Source: a virus. From it: a DNA stretch of 37,188 bases. The notes below the pieces were generated by a model, which was not told the DNA's origin, did no database searches, and was given only the letters and a program-made list of their open reading frames with translations. The stretch is taken from positions 1-37,188 of IMG/VR virus record IMGVR_UViG_3300045988_180981. One strand, given 5' to 3'. The position numbers and the translations under genes are program-made. Shown here piece after piece: positions 1 to 37,188 of this stretch (position 1 is the first letter of the stretch; each line of letters opens with the position of its first letter).

Positions 1-119
1 CCAACATCGCACGCGCACACGGGCGATTTGGGATTTACGAAGTAAAGCCCATGAAAGTAATGCCACCGCGGAAAAAAGGGAAAAAAATTCGAAGGGGTTG
101 GGTAGCCCCGAAAAAAAGG
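1..119. repeat. Left copy of a 119-bp exact direct terminal repeat; identical to 37070-37188
   Basis: Base-by-base comparison of the two window ends (ccaacatcgcacgcgcacacggg ... ccccgaaaaaaagg). Confidence 0.9.
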
Positions 120-4892: not shown

Positions 4893-4917
4893 ATTATAAT
4901 AAGCCCTTAGAGCAAGT
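4893..4917 (-). promoter_or_regulatory. Promoter-like element CTAAGGGCTTATTATAAT: a TATAAT -10 hexamer preceded by the conserved AGGGCT motif; -35 is weak
   Basis: Lies between the methyltransferase stop and the acidic ORF's SD. Confidence 0.4.
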
Positions 4918-8746: not shown

Positions 8747-8774
8747 ATTATACTAGCCCCTAGAACGATTGCAA
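8747..8774 (-). promoter_or_regulatory. Sigma-70/sigma-A-like promoter P1: TTGCAA-16 nt-TATAAT, spacer contains CTAGGGGCTAG
   Basis: Read from the reverse complement of 8747-8774. Confidence 0.65.
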
Positions 8775-8783
8775 TAGCATTTT

Positions 8784-8813
8784 GAAAAAATAAAAAAGAG
8801 GGCCGAAGCCCCC
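8784..8813 (-). terminator. Rho-independent terminator
   Basis: Minus strand GGGGGC-UUCG-GCCCUC hairpin followed by UUUUUUAUUUUUU. Confidence 0.6.
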
Positions 8814-8830
8814 AACGAGTATCTCTCTCG

Positions 8831-9025
8831 TCACCTGCGTTTATAATAATCGAGCAAGGCTTTTATGGCAACCATAATCCAATGGGTTAATATGCCAATG
8901 CAAAGCCAGAATGAACAACTCATGAGAACCAATGCCACGATTTGTAATGCCCCTTGTTGTGTGAGCATTATAGACAGGCAACACAAGCATAAAAGAGCCG
9001 ATAGGAAGAATGAAACAATCGTCAT
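8831..9025 (-). CDS. Small membrane protein (64 aa, 2 TM helices)
   Basis: Hydrophobic ORF followed by a terminator. Confidence 0.45.
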   Translation of the reverse strand: MTIVSFFLSALLCLCCLSIMLTQQGALQIVALVLMSCSFWLCIGILTHWIMVAIKALLDYYKRR

Positions 9026-9028
9026 TTG

Positions 9029-9505
9029 CTATTCCTTCTTAGATTCTCCAATCACTCTAGGTTTAATAAATTCTCCGTAATCCTCCTCCTTCTTTGTTTG
9101 CTCTTTTTCTTTTTCATTCTCTTCTCCCATTTCGGTTAAGATTTTAATGCACATTTTTATGTATGCACGGATGTTCATGTAGTCCGTATCAAGGAACATA
9201 TAATGAGCACTTTTCATTCTTTTGTACTCGTGCTCATCATAAAACCTTTCGTCAATTTCTTCCCATTCCTCTTTTCGGTGGTTTTTGCTTGCTACGGCTT
9301 GGCTCAATAGCCTTACCAATTCTCGCAAATCCTTCAAATCGGATTCATTCTTTTTCATCATGTTGTGTCGCTCGATTCCCTTCTTGTCGATATGCACCTC
9401 ATACTTCTCAACTTTATCTCCATCGTAGTTATAAACCAAAATAGGCCTTATCCGCTTGGGATACTTTAGGCTTGGCATTAAAGAATATTTTCTTTCAAAT
9501 TTCAT
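9029..9505 (-). CDS. Hypothetical protein (158 aa)
   Basis: Minus-strand ORF, coupled to its neighbours. Confidence 0.5.
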   Translation of the reverse strand: MKFERKYSLMPSLKYPKRIRPILVYNYDGDKVEKYEVHIDKKGIERHNMMKKNESDLKDLRELVRLLSQAVASKNHRKEEWEEIDERFYDEHEYKRMKSAHYMFLDTDYMNIRAYIKMCIKILTEMGEENEKEKEQTKKEEDYGEFIKPRVIGESKKE

Positions 9506-9852
9506 ACCATAATCTCCCGTAATGTATTGAGCGAACGCGATTGCCCCAGAATAACCGTTCTAGGCTCTTTGAGCGCGTTCGTGGGCAATAACTCCACTAA
9601 TGAGCCGTTTAAGCGCGTAGAGGGGCTTTTAAGGGTTTTCCAAGCCGTTCCGCCATCGTCTCGCACAATCTCCAACACGTTGAATTGCGTGTAATCGTCT
9701 CGAATGGTATCGACCGTGCACAAAGCCACGAACGCTCCTCCCATTGACTTTTGCTTCATGGTTTGGGCTTTGGCCACAAGGAAGTATCGCCCTGCGGTGC
9801 TATCGAACATGGTCTTTCCAGACAAGGCGATTCGATGGAACTCCCTTAGCAC
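9502..9852 (-). CDS. Hypothetical protein (116 aa)
   Basis: ATGA-type overlap with the downstream gene. Confidence 0.5.
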   Translation of the reverse strand: MLREFHRIALSGKTMFDSTAGRYFLVAKAQTMKQKSMGGAFVALCTVDTIRDDYTQFNVLEIVRDDGGTAWKTLKSPSTRLNGSLVELLPTNALKEPRTVILGQSRSLNTLREIMV

Positions 9853-10202
9853 GGTCTAGCCCTCTTAACGCTTGGGGCTTTTTGCTCAAGGATCTTAATC
9901 CTCTTATTGCCAACTATGTGGTAATGGATTGGCCACTTGGGTGGAATCCCGTGCCCCTTGAACGAAACCGTGCCCAACGGGAATAGGAGAATCGTCTTTG
10001 GGGTCATTTGGATGATTTCCGCATCATAGACCACGTAGCCGGACATTGGGCTTTTTGGACTTGTTCCCATGGACATTCGTACCGCAATCTTGATATATGG
10101 GCTTGTGAGGTCTTTTGGGCCAATGGAAGGAAGGGACTCGAACTCATCGTAAGCTTCTTGCTCAATCCCTTCCCTTTTCGCTCTATCAAATCCCATAGGC
10201 AT
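9846..10202 (-). CDS. Hypothetical protein (118 aa)
   Basis: Minus-strand ORF in operon context. Confidence 0.5.
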   Translation of the reverse strand: MPMGFDRAKREGIEQEAYDEFESLPSIGPKDLTSPYIKIAVRMSMGTSPKSPMSGYVVYDAEIIQMTPKTILLFPLGTVSFKGHGIPPKWPIHYHIVGNKRIKILEQKAPSVKRARPC

Positions 10203-10404
10203 CGAACCCCAGTAAATCTTTGAGAGCTTTGCGCAGAGGGCCGCTCATTTTGAAAACGCTTTTGTCACCATGCTCCAAATGGGTATAGTGGGAAATGGAA
10301 ACCCCAACGGCCTCCGCCACTTGCTCTTGGGTCATTCCCTTTTTTCTACGGGCTTCGGCCAAAGCCTTTCCCCCAAGTTTGTTTTTCTCTTGCAATCCGA
10401 TCAT
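10186..10404 (-). CDS. XRE-family helix-turn-helix transcriptional regulator (72 aa)
   Basis: MTQEQVAEAVGVSISHYTHLEHG is a classic HTH_3 signature; GAGGTGA SD. Confidence 0.8.
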   Translation of the reverse strand: MIGLQEKNKLGGKALAEARRKKGMTQEQVAEAVGVSISHYTHLEHGDKSVFKMSGPLRKALKDLLGFDAYGI

Positions 10405-10422
10405 ATTATCACCTCACTTTGT

Positions 10423-10905
10423 TTAGAATGGCAAATCATCTTCCGACAATTCCTCAATGGCTTGCGAGCGCATATTCGGAATGGTTCTCTCTTGCGGTTT
10501 CGTTGGCGCTCTGGATACAAATTGCGCGGTCTCGATGGCTGGCGCGTAAGAGAGCGGTTGTTGTTCTTGCGGTTGCGGTTTGGCCTCGCCTTTTGGTTGC
10601 GCATGGCATAGGCACTCGACCCTATCCGCGTAGACCTTCACGCCCAATCGCTTCGAGCCGTCTTTTCCTTGGTATGGGTGAACCGACAAGCGACCGTCAA
10701 CGAGAATCAAGTCTCCCGTTTTTAGATACTTAATGCAATAGTCTCCCGTAGTGCCCATGGCGGTGCAATCGAGAAACATCGTCTCCTCCGCACCGTCTTT
10801 CGTCTTGTAGGATTGAGCGACCGTGAAAGCCACCCATCTATTTTGGTTTCCTGCCATTTCTGGCGCTTTGGTCAATCGACCTTCGTAGATAACTTTGTTA
10901 TACAT
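10423..10905 (-). CDS. ssb: Single-stranded DNA-binding protein
   Basis: N-terminal NKVIYEGRLTKAPEM OB-fold start, Gln/Pro-rich linker and the acidic C-terminal tip DDLPF. Confidence 0.85.
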   Translation of the reverse strand: MYNKVIYEGRLTKAPEMAGNQNRWVAFTVAQSYKTKDGAEETMFLDCTAMGTTGDYCIKYLKTGDLILVDGRLSVHPYQGKDGSKRLGVKVYADRVECLCHAQPKGEAKPQPQEQQPLSYAPAIETAQFVSRAPTKPQERTIPNMRSQAIEELSEDDLPF

Positions 10906-10922
10906 TTGATATATACCTTCTT

Positions 10923-10960
10923 ATATATTTTGATAACCCGACTTACGCTTTTATGCAAAT
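10923..10960. promoter_or_regulatory. 10-bp perfect inverted repeat GATAACCCGA...TCGGGTTATC with an 18-nt loop, between sak and ssb
   Basis: Seen in sequence. No U-tract follows on the minus strand; the plus strand has TTTTTC after it. Confidence 0.45.
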
Positions 10961-10988
10961 CGGGTTATCTTTTTCAATAACTTTCTTC

Positions 10989-11813
10989 CTAAAAGGGCAT
11001 TTCGTCCTCCGTGACGAATTTGTTCGGCTGCTCGGCAGGTTTAGTCTCTGCTGGCTTTTGCACCTCGTAGGAAGCCTCGTACAATCCTTGTTGAGTGGGT
11101 TGCGGTTGATAGGACTTCTTAATCCCTTGCAATAGCATGATAGCCTTTTGAGCGTTCTCGAAGGTGTCGATGGGATTGTATTTGTATTTATCCACGAAGT
11201 CATTCAAGTTAAGCCCCCTCTCGCTCAATAGGCGGTTGATGAACGCCACTTGCTTGTCGGTTGCTTTCCCGTAAGTGTGGGAAGCAGGTCTAACCGCATA
11301 CCCTGCGTTGGCGGTGTACGGGTTCGGCTCTTTAGCTTCGGCTTCCTCAAACTTCGTTCCCTTGGGGGCTTCTAGTTTGCCCTCGTAGATATACAAGCCA
11401 ACTCCGAAGCGAGCCACGCATTTGGTTAGACCGCGCTGGATGGAATCGTTGATGTCTCTTCCATCGATTTTGTCCATTGGCATGGAATCGTTTCTATTGT
11501 CCATGATGGGGAAGGTTTCAACGCGCTCGACACCGAGAGCCGACACCGCGCATTTCACGAACCCAAACCCATTCACGTTCCACACGGGGTTGCCTAACGC
11601 GTCCTCGATAATGCGGAAGTTCGCGTCCGGGTAGATCTCGAGCATTGCCCTCCAAGCGACCGCCCAATTCAAGTAGGCTAGTTGGACGGTGACCGTTTTA
11701 CCGCTTTTCGTGTTGTATTTGATTTCCTTCCAATCGATGTCTTCTTTCGAAGCCCTCCAAGCACTTGCCTTGGCGAACTTATCGGCCAATAAATCCAAAT
11801 ATTCTTTATCCAT
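10989..11813 (-). CDS. Rad52/Sak-like single-strand annealing protein with an SSB-like acidic C-terminal tip (DEMPF)
   Basis: VQLAYLNWAVAWRAML resembles the LxWA.AW motif of phage Sak (DUF1071) proteins. Placed between a DUF1351-like gene and ssb. Confidence 0.55.
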   Translation of the reverse strand: MDKEYLDLLADKFAKASAWRASKEDIDWKEIKYNTKSGKTVTVQLAYLNWAVAWRAMLEIYPDANFRIIEDALGNPVWNVNGFGFVKCAVSALGVERVETFPIMDNRNDSMPMDKIDGRDINDSIQRGLTKCVARFGVGLYIYEGKLEAPKGTKFEEAEAKEPNPYTANAGYAVRPASHTYGKATDKQVAFINRLLSERGLNLNDFVDKYKYNPIDTFENAQKAIMLLQGIKKSYQPQPTQQGLYEASYEVQKPAETKPAEQPNKFVTEDEMPF

Positions 11814-11829
11814 TGTACAAATTCTCCTT

Positions 11830-12414
11830 TTATTCTTTTAACGTCCAATCGATTTTTAGGCTTTGAGCGTATTGCCTTAGTTGTAGCAATGCGTTGCGAG
11901 AGCCTTTGAGTTCCACGTTGGCGGTGGTCTTTTGGGCCAATTCCAACGCGTTCTCAATGTAGTGGTGAATCGTCTCCTTGGAAGCCGATTGCGGAATCTC
12001 CAAGTAAATCGAATCGAAGCTCGGGATTTCCGCGTAGGGCATTTCCCCGTCCTCGTTTGGCGCGATTAGCGAATCGTAGTAGCACTTGGCTTCCTTGTAG
12101 CGCTTCGCTTTCTTCACTTCGAGAATCTTCGCGGAGAAGTCCTTGTTTTCGAGTTCAAGGGGCTTTATTGCTTCCAGAACCTTTTGCTCCACCGCGGTGA
12201 ATGGCTCTAGAAACGCTTCCTTGGCTTCCTTAAGCGAATCTTTCGTTCCCTTGATGAATTTGTTGGCTTGCGTGCGCAAGTCCTCCAACGAGGTCGCGTT
12301 GTCCTCGGTGATGGCTAGGGCATTTAGATGTCCTGCCATTTCCAATGCCTTGTCCGAGATGGCTTGCAAGTCCACTTGGGGCAATTGGTTTTCAATCGTC
12401 TTAATTAGTTCCAT
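11830..12414 (-). CDS. DUF1351-like phage protein (194 aa), the usual partner gene upstream of Sak in Firmicutes siphophages
   Basis: Helical, acidic protein; assignment by position and composition only. Confidence 0.35.
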   Translation of the reverse strand: MELIKTIENQLPQVDLQAISDKALEMAGHLNALAITEDNATSLEDLRTQANKFIKGTKDSLKEAKEAFLEPFTAVEQKVLEAIKPLELENKDFSAKILEVKKAKRYKEAKCYYDSLIAPNEDGEMPYAEIPSFDSIYLEIPQSASKETIHHYIENALELAQKTTANVELKGSRNALLQLRQYAQSLKIDWTLKE

Positions 12415-12425
12415 TTTAGAACCTC

Positions 12426-12454
12426 CTTCCCCATAACTATACTAGCCCCTTGGA
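12426..12454 (-). promoter_or_regulatory. Sigma-A-like promoter P2: TTGCAA-17 nt-TATAGT, spacer contains CAAGGGGCTAG
   Basis: Reverse complement of 12426-12454; the -35 hexamer abuts the upstream stop codon. Confidence 0.6.
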
Positions 12455-12901
12455 CTAGTTGCAAGGGCTATTTTCCAAGTTTTCCACAAAGGAATCCACA
12501 AAGCGCTTGGCGAGCAATTCGCCCTCTTCGGCATTGTCCGCCATAATCCCTTGCCCGTCCTTGCGGATTTTCTTCGTAATGCAAGATACCTTCACCAAGG
12601 CTTTCATGGCTTTGTCTTTGAGGGTCTTGCGGTAGGCTAGCGTTTCCTCCAAGTTGCCCATGTGGTAGGTGAAGTTGTCGATGATTATTACTTTGTCCGC
12701 TCCCCAATCGCAATTGATGGCGGTTACATCGCTCCAGATTTGAAAGCATTTGTCATGCACCTTTGGGTTGTCGGAGTAATTGTAACCGTCCGAATAGGTC
12801 GCTTTCTGGTAGTTCGACACGATTTCCTCTTGGGTGGTGACTTTGCCTTGAAGAGAGTTTTTCAAGATGAGGTTGTAGGTCGCTAATTGTCTATTTGTCA
12901 T
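12455..12901 (-). CDS. Hypothetical protein (148 aa)
   Basis: Minus-strand ORF. Confidence 0.5.
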   Translation of the reverse strand: MTNRQLATYNLILKNSLQGKVTTQEEIVSNYQKATYSDGYNYSDNPKVHDKCFQIWSDVTAINCDWGADKVIIIDNFTYHMGNLEETLAYRKTLKDKAMKALVKVSCITKKIRKDGQGIMADNAEEGELLAKRFVDSFVENLENSPCN

Positions 12902-13448
12902 TTTCGTTCACCATTATCTTTTCGCCATCGGGCGTTTTCACCCAAATGGGCTTATCGTCTTTCAACATCACAATGTATTTCTCAACTGGCGGATAATATG
13001 GCATTGTTATCGGGAACATCTTGTTCACCAATCTCGAACCAACCGAGGAAATGAATGGTATTTTCTTGGGGTCTTCTTCGTCATAGCAAACAACCCTATC
13101 GACATCGTTGTAAGTCACTTTCCCATCAAGTGTTTCCCTTCTGAAAACGGAACACATCCTATTGCAAGAAAGATCGGATTTGAGACCCTGTTCTTTTAGG
13201 TAGCGTGGGTCTTCTTGCGTTATCCCCTCTTGGTCTAAAAAGTCTTCATCGACAATCGGGGTGAGGGGTAAGTCATTCAACAATCTCGTGAGAAGATGAG
13301 TAGTAATATTCCAACTAAATCCGCTATGGCTGTCTTTTGCCATCGACATAAACGCTCTTAAGGCGCTATCCGCACACATTTGTCCGTAAATGTCTTGTTT
13401 TTTCTTAAAGAGTTCGACTTCTCTTTTCGCTTCTTCGCTCATTGTCAT
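12891..13448 (-). CDS. Hypothetical protein (185 aa)
   Basis: AAAGGAG 8 nt upstream of ATGACAATG. Confidence 0.55.
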   Translation of the reverse strand: MTMSEEAKREVELFKKKQDIYGQMCADSALRAFMSMAKDSHSGFSWNITTHLLTRLLNDLPLTPIVDEDFLDQEGITQEDPRYLKEQGLKSDLSCNRMCSVFRRETLDGKVTYNDVDRVVCYDEEDPKKIPFISSVGSRLVNKMFPITMPYYPPVEKYIVMLKDDKPIWVKTPDGEKIMVNENDK

Positions 13449-13462
13449 TTTAATTTTCTCCT

Positions 13463-13993
13463 TTAATAGAATTTGATTTCGGCATTTTTTAGATTCTTCT
13501 TCACTTGCGATTCATCGTAAGGCAATGGATCGGCGAATTTTTGATAGTGCTCAATTTCTTTGTAACTCATTGGAACTAAGAACAATCTAGGGTTCATCGT
13601 CTCGCGGTGGCTCGCGATGAAGTCCAAGATTTCCTCTCCGGTGCACCGTTTCTTCCACGCTTCGCTCAAATGGGTGGTGAACTTAGGCCTTCTCCACAAA
13701 GCTTGCGCTTGTTGCATGAGGAAACCGCTTTTTGACGGTATGTGCATATCAACCACGTAAATCACCCAAAGGCAAGTCAATCCATCGTATTCTGGCTTGA
13801 ATCCGTAACCCTTGTCAAAGAGGGGGTTCAAGTATCCTTTCCGCTCTCCACGGTTCATCGTCCTCTTTTGAGGGAGGGAAGCGGTAGGCTCGTACAATTT
13901 CTTTTGCGGCTCGATTGGTAGGGAAGCTTCCCCAGTTTCCAAAGCCCTCTTTTGAGCATCTTCCAACGCTTTCTTTTCTTCTTCGGTTTTCAT
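13463..13993 (-). CDS. Hypothetical protein (176 aa)
   Basis: Minus-strand ORF. Confidence 0.5.
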   Translation of the reverse strand: MKTEEEKKALEDAQKRALETGEASLPIEPQKKLYEPTASLPQKRTMNRGERKGYLNPLFDKGYGFKPEYDGLTCLWVIYVVDMHIPSKSGFLMQQAQALWRRPKFTTHLSEAWKKRCTGEEILDFIASHRETMNPRLFLVPMSYKEIEHYQKFADPLPYDESQVKKNLKNAEIKFY

Positions 13994-13997
13994 GTTA

Positions 13998-14636
13998 TTA
14001 TCCTAAATAAACGTAGGATTGCGGAACTCCCTTCAATCCGTATTCCTCAATGCCGATCGGCTCGGGGAATCTCATTGGTTTGCTGAGAACGTATGCGTAT
14101 GCCACGTCCGCCCCGTTGAAGTACTCAATGTAATCTTCCAACGATATTCCCGAATGGTCTTTGGTTCTTTCATAAAGATTGTATGGCGAGTCTTTTATTA
14201 CTTTTAATACGTTTACTTCGCCAACAACCTTTTTCACTGGAGCAGTCTCGTAAATGACGATTTTGGACACATGGTGGTTCGGCAATTTCCTACGATATTC
14301 GAACCACTTCTTATCGTCTAGGATTTTCTCCGCATATTCAGGTTTGATTGGGAGGATGATTTTGCTTCCGCATTGTACTTGATTACGTTCCGAGGCTAAC
14401 AGCAAATCGCCCTTGTACTTTAAAAAGCACAACGAATACCGTTTTCCGTCCCGTTCATTGAACCTCTCGGTTTCAAAGAACTCCTCTGCCTCTTCGCGAT
14501 CGGTGAAATATCCAATCGTATATGGTAAGCGGTCTTCTTCTTTGATGAGTTCCACTTCGTAGTACGTTGGCAACATTTTGTTTTCGGAAATGCACTTATC
14601 GCAGTAATTCAATAATTCGAGTTTAGTCATTTTCAT
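13998..14636 (-). CDS. Hypothetical protein with a possible ASCH/PUA-like C-terminal domain (212 aa)
   Basis: The C-terminal half (KIILPIKPEYAEKILDDKKWFEYRR ... VAYAYVLSKP) has an ASCH-like pattern; this is a weak call. Confidence 0.3.
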   Translation of the reverse strand: MKMTKLELLNYCDKCISENKMLPTYYEVELIKEEDRLPYTIGYFTDREEAEEFFETERFNERDGKRYSLCFLKYKGDLLLASERNQVQCGSKIILPIKPEYAEKILDDKKWFEYRRKLPNHHVSKIVIYETAPVKKVVGEVNVLKVIKDSPYNLYERTKDHSGISLEDYIEYFNGADVAYAYVLSKPMRFPEPIGIEEYGLKGVPQSYVYLG

Positions 14637-14648
14637 TTTCTTTCTCCT

Positions 14649-15308
14649 TCAATCCTTTATATATTCGTAAGTTCCGGTCTCTTTGTTAAAGCGGAATTCG
14701 TTGGCATTTCCCCATAGTTTGAACGAGAGTTCGTAAGCCTCTTTTGAATCCGCAACGAATTGCTCAAAGGATACGCACGTTCCGTTTTTGTATTCGGCTC
14801 TTCCAGTGACACGTCCATTGTCTTCGTCCGCCCATTCATGCTCGAACGAGAAATCTTTGTGCATTTCCGCAAGTTTTTGAATAATGGGGGTAGGCGGTGT
14901 CCAAGCGGTGAGAAGCTCAATCGTGTCGCCATCGATTTTCGTTTCCCCTGCGTTCCATTTACATCCCCAATGATGAATACTCCAATCGAACCAAGTGGCG
15001 AATCCGTATTTTTGGAGATTCTCGAACGCGCGTTTTCCAAGTTTAATGGTGTCTTCCAAATTCCCTTCGTTTCTCTTTTTCAATTCTTCGACTTTGTGTT
15101 CATCAATTATCTTTTCTGGAGAGGTGATGGAAGCGATATATAACTTAAGCCCGTCTCTCGTTCTAGGGCCACATTCTATTCTCAAATCATCGGGCATTGT
15201 CTCAATGGTATTGAAGTCGAAGTCGCCATCGTTGTCGAGGTGCTTTTGGATTATTGATTTGGCGTTCTTTCCTTTTATGGTCAATCTATTTTTGATGAAA
15301 TTCGGCAT
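14649..15308 (-). CDS. Hypothetical protein (219 aa) with a conserved W.DW..HHWGCKWNA motif
   Basis: Motif seen; the family could not be named with confidence. Confidence 0.45.
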   Translation of the reverse strand: MPNFIKNRLTIKGKNAKSIIQKHLDNDGDFDFNTIETMPDDLRIECGPRTRDGLKLYIASITSPEKIIDEHKVEELKKRNEGNLEDTIKLGKRAFENLQKYGFATWFDWSIHHWGCKWNAGETKIDGDTIELLTAWTPPTPIIQKLAEMHKDFSFEHEWADEDNGRVTGRAEYKNGTCVSFEQFVADSKEAYELSFKLWGNANEFRFNKETGTYEYIKD

Positions 15309-15319
15309 TTTGTTTCTCC

Positions 15320-15505
15320 TTAGCGACTCTTAACGGTCACGATAAACAACCCTTCTTTTGGGGTGATTAAATAGACTTCTTTTTCTGCTACTTCGTTGTA
15401 GCAGAGTTCGCTCGAATCGCCTTCTGCAAGGGTGCGACCAGCAAAGTCGATAACGCGCATTTTTTTGTAACCGTTCACGTAGTTAAGAAAATGTTTTATT
15501 TTCAT
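15320..15505 (-). CDS. Small hypothetical protein (61 aa)
   Basis: Minus-strand ORF, first after P3. Confidence 0.4.
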   Translation of the reverse strand: MKIKHFLNYVNGYKKMRVIDFAGRTLAEGDSSELCYNEVAEKEVYLITPKEGLFIVTVKSR

Positions 15506-15530
15506 TTTTAGTTCCTCCTTAAGAACTGGA

Positions 15531-15563
15531 TATATTATATAACTAGCCCTTAGGGATTGTCAA
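15531..15563 (-). promoter_or_regulatory. Sigma-A-like promoter P3: TTGACA-16/18 nt-TATATA/TATAAT, spacer contains CTAAGGGCTAG
   Basis: Reverse complement of 15531-15563. Confidence 0.6.
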
Positions 15564-15574
15564 ATAGGGAAGTG

Positions 15575-15616
15575 AAAAAAATTTTAAAAAACAAAAAGCG
15601 CCCATGTTGAGCGCTA
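15575..15616 (-). terminator. Rho-independent terminator overlapping the stop codon of gene 15614-16645
   Basis: AGCGC-9 nt-GCGCU hairpin followed by UUUUUGUUUUUUAAAAUUUUUUU on the minus strand. Confidence 0.5.
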
Positions 15617-16911: not shown

Positions 16912-17220
16912 TTGGTTTCCCCTAGGACAAAAGCACTCTCCCTTAATGGTTTTCTAGGGGAAAGAAAAAAGAGAACGAAAAGAAGGTTCTCTTAAGAATC
17001 TTTTAAGAATAAGTTAGAGTGTTTAATTGAACAATACTTACTCATATATGCAATTGCTTACTATGAACGCAATTAAAAAAGAAATCCGTTACTTTCTTTA
17101 ATCGTGCGCGAAAAAAGCCGTATCCTTTCCAATTCATGAGCAGGAGCGGAGTTGCCCCTTACGGGGCAAAGAACGAACGCGCACGGAAAAAAGAATTTTC
17201 TAACGGACTTTCATGTGGTA

Positions 17221-30169: not shown

Positions 30170-30727
30170 TTATCTCCTTCCGCGATTTAGTTTGTCGAGG
30201 GTTCTCGCAATTCCCTCATTCGTTCCGACTGATGGCGCGGAAGATCCACTCAAGCCAATGTCTTGGCCCTCATCGGTTTTGTCGCGAAGCACATTCGCGT
30301 CTCTCAACGCGGTGCGCAACGCTTCGTTTTCTTTCGCCATTCCGTCCAACGCTTTAGACAAAGATTCGATTTTGGTCATGACGGCCTCCATCGACACTGC
30401 GTTCTCGGGATTTCCAGCCTCAATTGTCGCTTCGGGGGTGACTGGTGTCGGAGCGCCCCCTGCTTCGGGGGTCTTATCTTCGGCTACGGGTGCTTCCGTT
30501 GCGGTCGGGGTTGGGGCGTTTTCGGTCGGCTCGGCTTCTTTGCCTTTCGCGCCTTCGGCTACTTCCGCTTGTGCGTTTTCATCCATTGGCTGGGCTTTTT
30601 CGGCTTTGCCTTCCATCGGGTCTTCGTCTTCATCGGGGGCGAAGAACGTTGCGAGTTCGTCTTCGGAAATGCCACCCTTCTCGATGAGTTTCCCGATTTT
30701 GCTTAGAAATTTTTCCTTGTTGTTCAT
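30170..30727 (-). CDS. Scaffolding protein candidate (185 aa): acidic, Pro/Ala/Glu-rich middle, helical C-terminus
   Basis: Composition and position directly upstream of the capsid gene. Confidence 0.45.
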   Translation of the reverse strand: MNNKEKFLSKIGKLIEKGGISEDELATFFAPDEDEDPMEGKAEKAQPMDENAQAEVAEGAKGKEAEPTENAPTPTATEAPVAEDKTPEAGGAPTPVTPEATIEAGNPENAVSMEAVMTKIESLSKALDGMAKENEALRTALRDANVLRDKTDEGQDIGLSGSSAPSVGTNEGIARTLDKLNRGRR

Positions 30728-36700: not shown

Positions 36701-36913
36701 TATATCCCAAGGGCTATGATAGTGGAAGAGAGAAGCCGTGGAAGCCCGTTCCGCGCACGAATCACGCACAAGTGAGCACGATATTGCCCATCTTTGATTG
36801 TTCATAAGCGAGATGGATGGGCGATGAGAGAATGGCTTCATCGCGTAGCGCGCCTCCCCATAAACAATCCGTAGAAAGAGGAATGGGCAAGACCGTTTTA
36901 CCGATAAACCGCT

Positions 36914-37069: not shown

Positions 37070-37188
37070 CCAACATCGCACGCGCACACGGGCGATTTGG
37101 GATTTACGAAGTAAAGCCCATGAAAGTAATGCCACCGCGGAAAAAAGGGAAAAAAATTCGAAGGGGTTGGGTAGCCCCGAAAAAAAGG
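37070..37188. repeat. Right copy of the 119-bp direct terminal repeat. Either genuine terminal redundancy or overlap from a circular or circularly permuted assembly.
   Basis: Identical to 1-119. The window stops where the repeat stops, so the true repeat could be longer. Confidence 0.9.

Follow-up and report, generated by a model that had tools for sequence, protein, structure and literature searches.

Cro-type repressors of the XRE family (434, P22 and lambda Cro) are encoded in the early operons that they repress and act on dyad-symmetric sites of 14-17 bp inside core promoters, and dispersed asymmetric operators are recognized by C1 of bacteriophage P1. The repressors of the heteroimmune phages P2, P2 Hy dis and W-phi have operators made of 8-10 bp direct repeats lying 22-34 bp apart, which differ between close relatives (PMC1904268), and the stoperators of mycobacteriophages are dispersed asymmetric repressor sites (PMC9283540). 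In T4-type phages, mobile promoter/stem-loop regulatory cassettes (PeSL) have been described (PMC2839356, PMC4122927). Here, we analyzed IMG/VR virus record IMGVR_UViG_3300045988_180981 over its full length of 37,188 nt (hereafter the window). It represents the complete genome, about 37 kb long and assembled as a circle, of an uncultivated gut siphophage of the Firmicutes type, and six of its early promoters (P1-P6) carry a common box of 10-15 bp between their -35 and -10 hexamers. On balance, this box appears to be the operator of a phage-encoded DNA-binding protein that would shut down the early units together, and a small XRE protein of the same early region is the likeliest binder.

The long open reading frames (ORFs) of the window are all on the minus strand, with a single direction of transcription throughout, and the early region extends from 16.9 to 1.0 kb on that strand. 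P1, P2 and P3 are the top sigma-A-type promoters of the window and, as the preliminary description of this DNA had proposed, combine strong hexamers at 16-18 bp. Downstream of each, a ribosome-binding site (RBS) of sequence GGAGG precedes a start codon (Table 1). The position proposed for P2 (12426-12454) was 10 nt off (12464-12436), whereas the promoter itself holds; its -35 hexamer overlaps the 3' end of the upstream gene. Two weaker minus-strand copies of the motif, placed at 4893-4917 and 2142-2180, correspond to P5 and P6, which are conserved in related phages with better -35 hexamers (TTGACT/TTGACA; TTGACT in the case of P5), and a further box promoter absent from that description, P4, stands at the head of the early region. 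In contrast, a copy claimed on the plus strand at 36707-36725 was discarded, since it fails to match the box, has a poor -35 (TAGACC) and lies antisense within the putative small-terminase gene. The hexamers match the consensus at 12 of 12 positions in P3, 10 of 12 in P1, 9 of 12 in P2, P4 and P6, and 8 of 12 in P5, and all of these minus-strand promoters are intergenic and, with the exception of P4, lie 15-110 nt from a GGAGG-type RBS and a start codon. A further candidate directly upstream of the XRE gene (TTGCCA-18-GATAAT, 10434-10405) was rejected, its -10 being immediately adjacent to the start codon. Alternative sigma factors (sigma-54, sigma-H, sigma-B and ECF) were dismissed because their known consensus sequences do not match, and so was MerR-type activation, since the spacers measure 16-18 bp and not 19-20 bp.

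Table 1. Promoters, intrinsic terminators and other assigned features of the window.
Feature	Coordinates	Strand	Description
P1	8774-8747	minus	TTGCAA (8774-8769)-16-TATAAT (8752-8747); spacer TCGTTCTAGGGGCTAG; box 8764-8754
P2	12464-12436	minus	TTGCAA (12464-12459)-17-TATAGT (12441-12436); whole spacer a near-palindrome, CTAGTCCAAGGGGCTAG, 12458-12442
P3	15563-15534	minus	TTGACA (15563-15558)-18-TATAAT (15539-15534); spacer ATCCCT-A-AGGGCT-AGTTA; box 15554-15544
P4	16899-16871	minus	TTGCAA-17-TATCAT; head of early region; spacer box CCTAGGGGCTA, 16885-16875
P5	4925-4896	minus	TTAGAT-18-TATTAT, followed 3 nt later by TATAAT; box TCTAAGGGCTT, 4911-4901
P6	2177-2148	minus	TTGACT-18-TACTAT; box TCTTAGGGCTA, 2162-2152
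P7	31118-31090	minus	TTGCAA-17-TATTAT; late region, head-gene module; perfect 19-bp palindrome TATATCCTTTAAGGATATA
Intrinsic terminator	17542-17522	minus	After late module; among the five top-ranked sites
Intrinsic terminator	15615-15597	minus	AGCGCTCAACATGGGCGCT + T-run; ends P4 unit; directly before P3
Intrinsic terminator	8813-8798	minus	GGGGGC-TTCG-GCCCTC + T-run; ends P2 unit; directly before P1
Intrinsic terminator	2424-2397	minus	Upstream of P6
Intrinsic terminator	1004-984	minus	End of early region
XRE/HTH_3 protein, 72 aa	10186-10404	minus	Pfam HTH_3, E=1.4e-9; also HTH_19 and HTH_31
Late module	~37.0-17.55 kb	minus	Large-terminase homologue, minor capsid protein, holin-like gene, tape-measure-sized ORF
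Putative small terminase and portal-sized ORF	within late module	minus	Assigned by position

The five top-ranked terminator-like sites of the early half are all intergenic and all on the minus strand. One of them directly precedes P1 and another P3, as had been described, at 24 and 34 nt from the respective -35 hexamers, and in the terminator before P1 the substitutions found in relatives are confined to the loop or preserve pairing by wobble. The P4 unit encodes a 73-aa and then a 343-aa product, which hydrophobic stretches in relatives suggest to be membrane proteins; the P3 unit comprises a hypervariable region of cassettes, with a homologue of the anti-Thoeris protein Tad3 among its products; and the P2 unit comprises DUF1351, Sak, SSB and XRE. 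The terminators between the units imply separate transcripts, but the shared box implies common regulation, that is, a single regulon, rather than the independently regulated segments that had been suggested.

The heptamer GGGCTAG occurs five times in the 37 kb, three of them within the spacers of P1, P2 and P3, and it ranked first, after the RBS heptamers, in an unbiased count of 7-mers in short intergenic regions. A degenerate box that fits all six promoters, YCWWRGGGCTW, was searched over the whole window and over 100 shuffles of it; there were 8 matches compared with 0.39 expected, a number reached in none of the shuffles and well outside what chance would give. Six of these matches are the spacers of P1-P6 and the other two lie in coding sequence on the plus strand. 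The core can be written as (C)CTAGGG(G)CTA. Although GGGCTAG is indeed present in the three spacers for which AGGG(G)CTAG had been reported immediately 5' of the -10, the position of the motif is not fixed, ranging from a 1-nt overlap with that hexamer to 5 nt upstream of it. Similarly, the small dyads ascribed to the element were recovered at P2, as a 17-bp near-palindrome (CTAGTCC-AAG-GGGCTAG), and at P3 (ATCCCT-A-AGGGCT), but P1, P4 and P5 carry the right half only. Good dyads were found at P2 (6 of 8 arm positions), P3 and P7 (a perfect palindrome of 19 bp), at P6 of the close relatives and in all promoters of one sister lineage (L186, see below), and the ideal dyad of the whole family is TA[T/G]CCCTAGGG[A/C]TA. 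At P4, the -10 itself sits within a dyad (GGCTAT-C-ATAGCC), and a second copy of CCTAGGGG is located at 16919-16926 on the minus strand, 41 bp upstream of the copy in the spacer. The ATG of the 73-aa gene (16863) follows the -10 TATCAT of P4 by 7 nt and lacks an RBS, which suggests that the P4 mRNA may be leaderless; TACAAT-N7-ATG is found at the 73-aa gene of the sister phages L185 and L033.

Close relatives of the window, namely one IMG/VR contig and about 10 contigs from ENA, Logan or metagenomes (35-37 kb; about 88-90% nucleotide identity) that come from pig-gut and other gut assemblies, have its gene order and retain P1, P2, P4 and P5. P1 is nearly invariant in them from the -35 through the -10, with variation in the 5' leader and over the 20 nt upstream. 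At P4, compared in nine relatives, CCTAGGGGCTATCATAGCC and the -10 are invariant and the 8 spacer bases beside the -35 vary freely, and at P2 the sole recurrent change affects the base beside the centre of the 17-bp near-palindrome. When the four promoters were pooled, 5 of the 44 columns of the box were variable as against 62 of the 223 other non-coding columns. In the relative L046 (3598-3626), the 17-nt spacer of P2 is exactly reverse-complemented, reading CTAGCCCCTTGGACTAG for CTAGTCCAAGGGGCTAG, with both hexamers unchanged. The five coordinated changes that this entails point to an inversion and not to drift, and the inverted spacer suggests that the element works in either orientation. 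The event itself resembles a template switch on a quasi-palindrome. P6 of the relatives holds a 15-bp dyad (TAGCC-CCTAG-GGATA) whose orientation is opposite to that of the other promoters. A scan of IMG/VR with the exact pattern TTGCAA-N6-10-GGGCTAGTATA gave 17 loci, one on a related contig and the rest attributable to chance, and 140 loci collected from metagenomes and IMG/VR by homology to the XRE protein were generic XRE genes except for three close relatives.

Sister lineages were reached through the 343-aa protein encoded behind P4, which has graded homologues (34-67% identity) on contigs of similar size. The five that were compared are of similar G+C content and 52-66% identical in this protein. 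In all lineages, the genes follow in the order 73 aa, 343 aa, terminator, promoter, variable genes, 148 aa, DUF1351, Sak, SSB, XRE, 118 aa and RusA, and promoters of the type TTGCAA/TTGACA-17-TAnnnT are located at equivalent places. Each lineage has a box of its own. That of L037 (66%) is TATCCCTAGGG, present in three of three promoters as ACTATCCCTAGGGGACT, CTATCCCTAGCGACTAG and ATATCCCTAAGGGCTAT, a family to which the P3 spacer of the window (ATCCCTAAGGGCTAG) also belongs. L186 (65%) carries TATCCTTAAGGGATA, likewise in three of three promoters, in TATCC-N5-GGATA palindromes such as CTATCCTTAAAGGATAT, and L043 (59%) carries TCTACAAG/CTTGTAGA. The box of L038 (57%), GTACACGA, is found in the spacer and again 24 bp upstream, on either side of the -35, and five of the six copies of its heptamer GTACACG lie in promoters. 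In L185 and L033 (52-53%), two direct copies of GTTTATACGC, or GT(T/G)TATACGC, lie 22-24 bp apart around the -35, and every copy of this box is within a promoter. The lineage boxes were recovered after the RBS by the unbiased 7-mer count in short intergenic regions, most or all of their genome-wide copies being in promoters, and each of them is rare or absent in the remaining lineages. More distant relatives of 30-38% G+C (L029-L031, L034, L035 and L040) gave no interpretable promoter family. A box that is constant within a lineage and exchanged between lineages on an unchanged -35/-10 scaffold fits one side of a co-evolving pair of protein and DNA and is unlike a contact with a conserved host polymerase; the presence of a different box at the same place in related phages points to the binding site of a phage-encoded repressor.

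The candidate for this role is the 72-aa protein whose assignment to the XRE regulators was confirmed by its Pfam match (Table 1). It is of the size of Cro, consists of the HTH_3 domain alone, and is the sole recognizable helix-turn-helix or other DNA-binding protein among the 9-10 core early genes common to all lineages. In six of six lineages, its gene lies behind those of Sak and SSB in an operon headed by a box-bearing promoter, an arrangement expected for negative autoregulation. The nearest natural relative of solved structure, according to a search of the Protein Data Bank (PDB), is the restriction-modification controller C.BclI (E=1.2e-3). The residues of the recognition helix vary by lineage. 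Three lineages have a short XRE (72-73 aa) with similar recognition helices (VSISHYTH, VSTSHYCH and ISTNYYCH) and a dyad box centred in the spacer, and three have a longer one (85-94 aa) with an N-terminal extension and direct repeats 22-26 bp apart that flank the -35; the two readable helices of the latter are RSIQYYGH and LTTAYYGH, that of L038 being cut by the end of the fetched locus. A supposed natural XRE knock-out, L188, was rejected, as the gene is present and had merely not been called.

From these features we infer protein binding at the box, repression, and the identity of the protein responsible. Since the hexamers of P1-P3 are close to the consensus and optimally spaced, the host sigma-A holoenzyme should use these promoters unaided, and it would transcribe them as soon as the cell is infected. 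RNA polymerase would be blocked by a protein that occupies the spacer or, in promoters of the L038, L043 and L185 type, the two flanks of the -35, and because such a protein would exclude the enzyme, the box is best read as the operator of a repressor. The early units would then be transcribed separately and turned down jointly, with the XRE protein from the P2 operon feeding back on the early promoters in a Cro-like negative loop. It is plausible that the sites at P1-P7 cover a range of affinities and that some of them are occupied cooperatively.

The proposal that the conserved spacer element is a shared operator is well supported by comparison: the box varies less than the non-coding flanks, tolerates inversion, is partly dyad-symmetric and has been exchanged in the sister phages. 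Several observations weigh against it, or against the XRE protein as its reader. The difference in variability among the close relatives is of modest significance (Fisher p=0.02), and the distance from the box to the -10 differs by as much as 6 nt among promoters. The sequence at the position of P3 in most close relatives is TTGACA-AGCCCTAGGAGATAGAC-TAAAAT, which keeps CCCTAGG and lacks GGGCTAG, so that the exact core appears dispensable for a working promoter there, and with a single good half-site at P1, P4 and P5, a simple site for a symmetric dimer is not evident at these promoters. The six lineages across which XRE and box covary are phylogenetically nested and differ in nearly everything, and the division into two classes of XRE and box coincides with the phylogenetic division of the sample into halves. 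Moreover, the conserved proteins of 118, 148 and 176 aa, which have no assignable fold (PDB sequence searches with the 148-aa and 118-aa proteins were uninformative), could be the binder instead. A phage-encoded binder of some kind seems fairly likely to us, and the XRE protein, the leading candidate, has in our estimation about an even chance of being the protein that binds the box.

The box might also mark nothing more than common descent, with one cassette of promoter, RBS and, in some cases, terminator having been duplicated and spread by recombination and its spacer being young or homogenized. P1 and P2, as well as P5 and P6, align well past the box, the RBS region included; the P3-P2 gene content is different in every close relative; the homology between the window and the relative L001 ends at the start codon after P3, and in L001 two P3-type promoters enclose a cassette of two extra genes. 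The PeSLs of T4-type phages provide a precedent (PMC2839356, PMC4122927). Nevertheless, ancestry alone would leave unexplained why every sister lineage repeats a box of its own in all its promoters beside constant hexamers, why an invariant box adjoins variable spacer bases, why dyad symmetry and the exact inversion in L046 exist, and why extra copies of the box lie about two or four helical turns upstream of the -35, and we regard it as an unlikely sole explanation; the spread of cassettes is compatible with the operator interpretation as a second role of the same units.

A positive role of the box, read by the transcription machinery or by an activator, a sigma-appropriation factor or a Q-like antiterminator that would load there for read-through of the terminators, seems less probable still. 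Lambda Q binds between the -35 and -10 at PR', which is the position of the box here; there are terminators between the units, and P5 and P6 have a sub-optimal arrangement of hexamers, with 21 nt between the -35 and the best -10. However, P1-P3, with near-consensus hexamers 16-18 nt apart, have no need of an activator, each terminator is followed by a promoter of its own, which makes read-through unnecessary, and the inversion in L046 speaks against a directional contact with RNA polymerase. Sigma, Q, RinA or ArpU-like proteins were not detected among the scanned proteins of the window. Very improbable, in our view, is a site for a host regulator or a DNA methyltransferase by which host physiology or methylation would tune the promoters. 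The box of every lineage does contain a palindrome of 4-6 bp (CTAG, CCTAGG, GTAC, GTATAC or TTAA) reminiscent of restriction-modification, and a C5 cytosine methyltransferase is encoded in the window and N6/N4 methyltransferases in relatives. However, the called gene sets of L019 and L023 include no methyltransferase family and their boxes are unchanged, which led us to reject the link to methylation, and the fact that boxes differ among sister phages of similar G+C content makes a conserved host factor unlikely. We know of no motif of a Firmicutes regulator that matches the box.

When the proposed repressor-operator system is set beside the described ones, the Cro-type repressors come close in several respects: an HTH_3-only protein of some 72 aa whose gene lies in the early operon that it would repress, partly dyad-symmetric sites of 14-17 bp inside the core promoter, and negative feedback on early transcription, which is proposed here. 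Unlike them, the window has no detectable partner CI and no divergent switch region, its genes all pointing one way; where they have one or two clusters of operators, the box here is distributed over six or seven promoters, and several of its predicted binding sites have a single good half-site. With the C repressors of the P2 family (PMC1904268) the locus has in common that related phages carry different operators and repressors at an equivalent promoter, and the boxes of L038, L043 and L185 are, like the operators of P2 Hy dis, direct repeats of 8-10 bp, here lying 22-26 bp apart around the -35. In contrast to that family, the window has a dyad box in the spacer, many such promoters per genome and, in the early- and late-region proteins scanned, no evidence of a temperate lifestyle. 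As in the stoperator and P1 C1 systems, one repressor specificity is proposed for many sites, and the GGGCTA core lacks symmetry at promoters P1, P4 and P5. However, there are 6-8 copies here, located in promoter spacers apart from two coding matches on the opposite strand, and the best sites are dyads; because the sites are confined to promoters, a stoperator system was rejected. Like the PeSLs, the repeated units of early promoter and stem-loop terminator bracket variable genes at the end-points of insertions and replacements, but they belong to a siphophage of the Gram-positive type, use sigma-A promoters, have the terminator ahead of the promoter, and bear an additional lineage-specific, operator-like box. 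Since the window is a 37-kb siphophage-like genome and not a T4-type myovirus, the relation to PeSLs would be one of analogy.

The conserved units of terminator, promoter and RBS flank accessory cassettes that are exchanged between related phages and appear to serve as the patches of homology for this exchange, a role compatible with that of operators, which it would accompany and not replace. Homology between the window and L001 spans the P3 promoter and its RBS up to the start codon, and the additional two-gene cassette of L001 comes with its own terminator. In each close relative for which a gene table was compared, the gene set behind P3 differs and the flanking promoters persist. The stretch 15505-12455 on the minus strand and its equivalents in L001 and L019-L026 form a hypervariable accessory island, whose cargo in the window includes Tad3, ASCH and DUF1281_C. 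This composition fits early-expressed anti-defence cargo.

The palindrome of P7 (TATATCCTTTAAGGATATA) fills the spacer of this promoter, and its half-sites are of the TATCC/GGATA family found in the box dyads. The stretch 31118-30818 (minus) consists of P7 and about 265 nt downstream of it that contain no credible ORF and show frameshifting indels in the relative L189. An intrinsic terminator at 30850-30827, with a stem that remains paired in the relative, ends the stretch, which has a predicted fold of -84.7 kcal/mol (z = -3.4) and gave no Rfam match. This stretch is a candidate non-coding RNA unit within the head-gene module. At about 30805-30785 (minus), directly after the P7 terminator and upstream of a scaffold-like gene (30170-30727), a TATAAT lies inside the palindrome GTGTAT-A-ATACAC, which resembles the box of L185 (GTGTATAC) and could be a second type of operator on a late promoter.

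With regard to the rest of the genome, the two ends of the window (1-118 and 37071-37188) are identical, as expected where the assembly of a circular or terminally redundant genome overlaps itself. The late module occupies about 37.0 to 17.55 kb of the minus strand; its large terminase is about 24% identical to homologues of Bacillus and Streptococcus phages, nothing closer being found, and the putative small-terminase gene gave no family match. The early products include, besides Sak, SSB, the 72-aa XRE/HTH_3 protein, Tad3, ASCH and DUF1281_C, the C5 cytosine methyltransferase, a pentapeptide-repeat protein and RusA. A Megablast comparison with isolated phages gave no DNA match for the early region, and of 20 unassigned early proteins scanned against PHROGs, 19 had no family and one fell into a family of unknown function. 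No integrase was found among the scanned early- and late-region proteins, and thus there is no evidence in them for a temperate lifestyle. About 600 bp of non-coding DNA with DnaA-box-like repeats follow the terminator at 17542-17522; at least six copies of (T)GTGGAAAAC occur inside 100 bp (17310-17210, minus) between the lysis genes and P4, and the equivalent position in sister lineages is occupied by canonical DnaA boxes (TGTGGATAA/TTATCCACA). These repeats are likely a DnaA-dependent replication origin. A tandem array of units resembling CCGTTGCCGT/CCGTCACCGTT (2560-2440, minus) lies between RusA and the terminator at 2424-2397 and is also kept in the lineages L043 and L185. A 30-nt element, GGTTCGCCCCCACCCTCACAAAAGGGGGC, with a hairpin GCCCCC...GGGGGC, is found at 2082-2052 and 1706-1676 (minus), directly 5' of the RBSs of the last two early genes. 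The terminator at 1004-984 is separated from the putative small-terminase gene by about 1.1 kb of non-coding, pyrimidine-rich DNA, within which the inverted repeat TTGTGCA-GAG-TGCACAA (about 510-494) has a similar counterpart at the equivalent place in L043. An Rfam search of the window gave no match.

A broader picture, which we offer as speculative, is that these would be non-integrating phages of gut Firmicutes split into immunity-like specificity groups. In each group, one XRE protein would act through the lineage box on every early promoter, including P7 with its structured non-coding RNA of about 260 nt; the box cassettes would be the joints at which anti-defence genes are swapped, and the orientation of the box would flip by template-switch inversion. 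If true, this would be a Gram-positive counterpart of the PeSLs fused to a heteroimmunity system. The proposed circuit in itself adds a further case, from phages that have received no study, to a well-known type of regulation; it is not new conceptually, and its mechanism would not surprise phage biologists. An essentially uncharacterized group of phages nevertheless gains its first regulatory annotation, with predicted start and stop sites of early transcription and the genes that would be co-regulated, among them the Tad3-bearing hypervariable region, and a directly testable pair of repressor and operator is proposed. The series of sister phages, in which the scaffold is constant and the box changes, provides a natural set for the co-evolution of repressor specificity and operator, from which orthogonal promoter-repressor parts can also be drawn for use in Gram-positive hosts.

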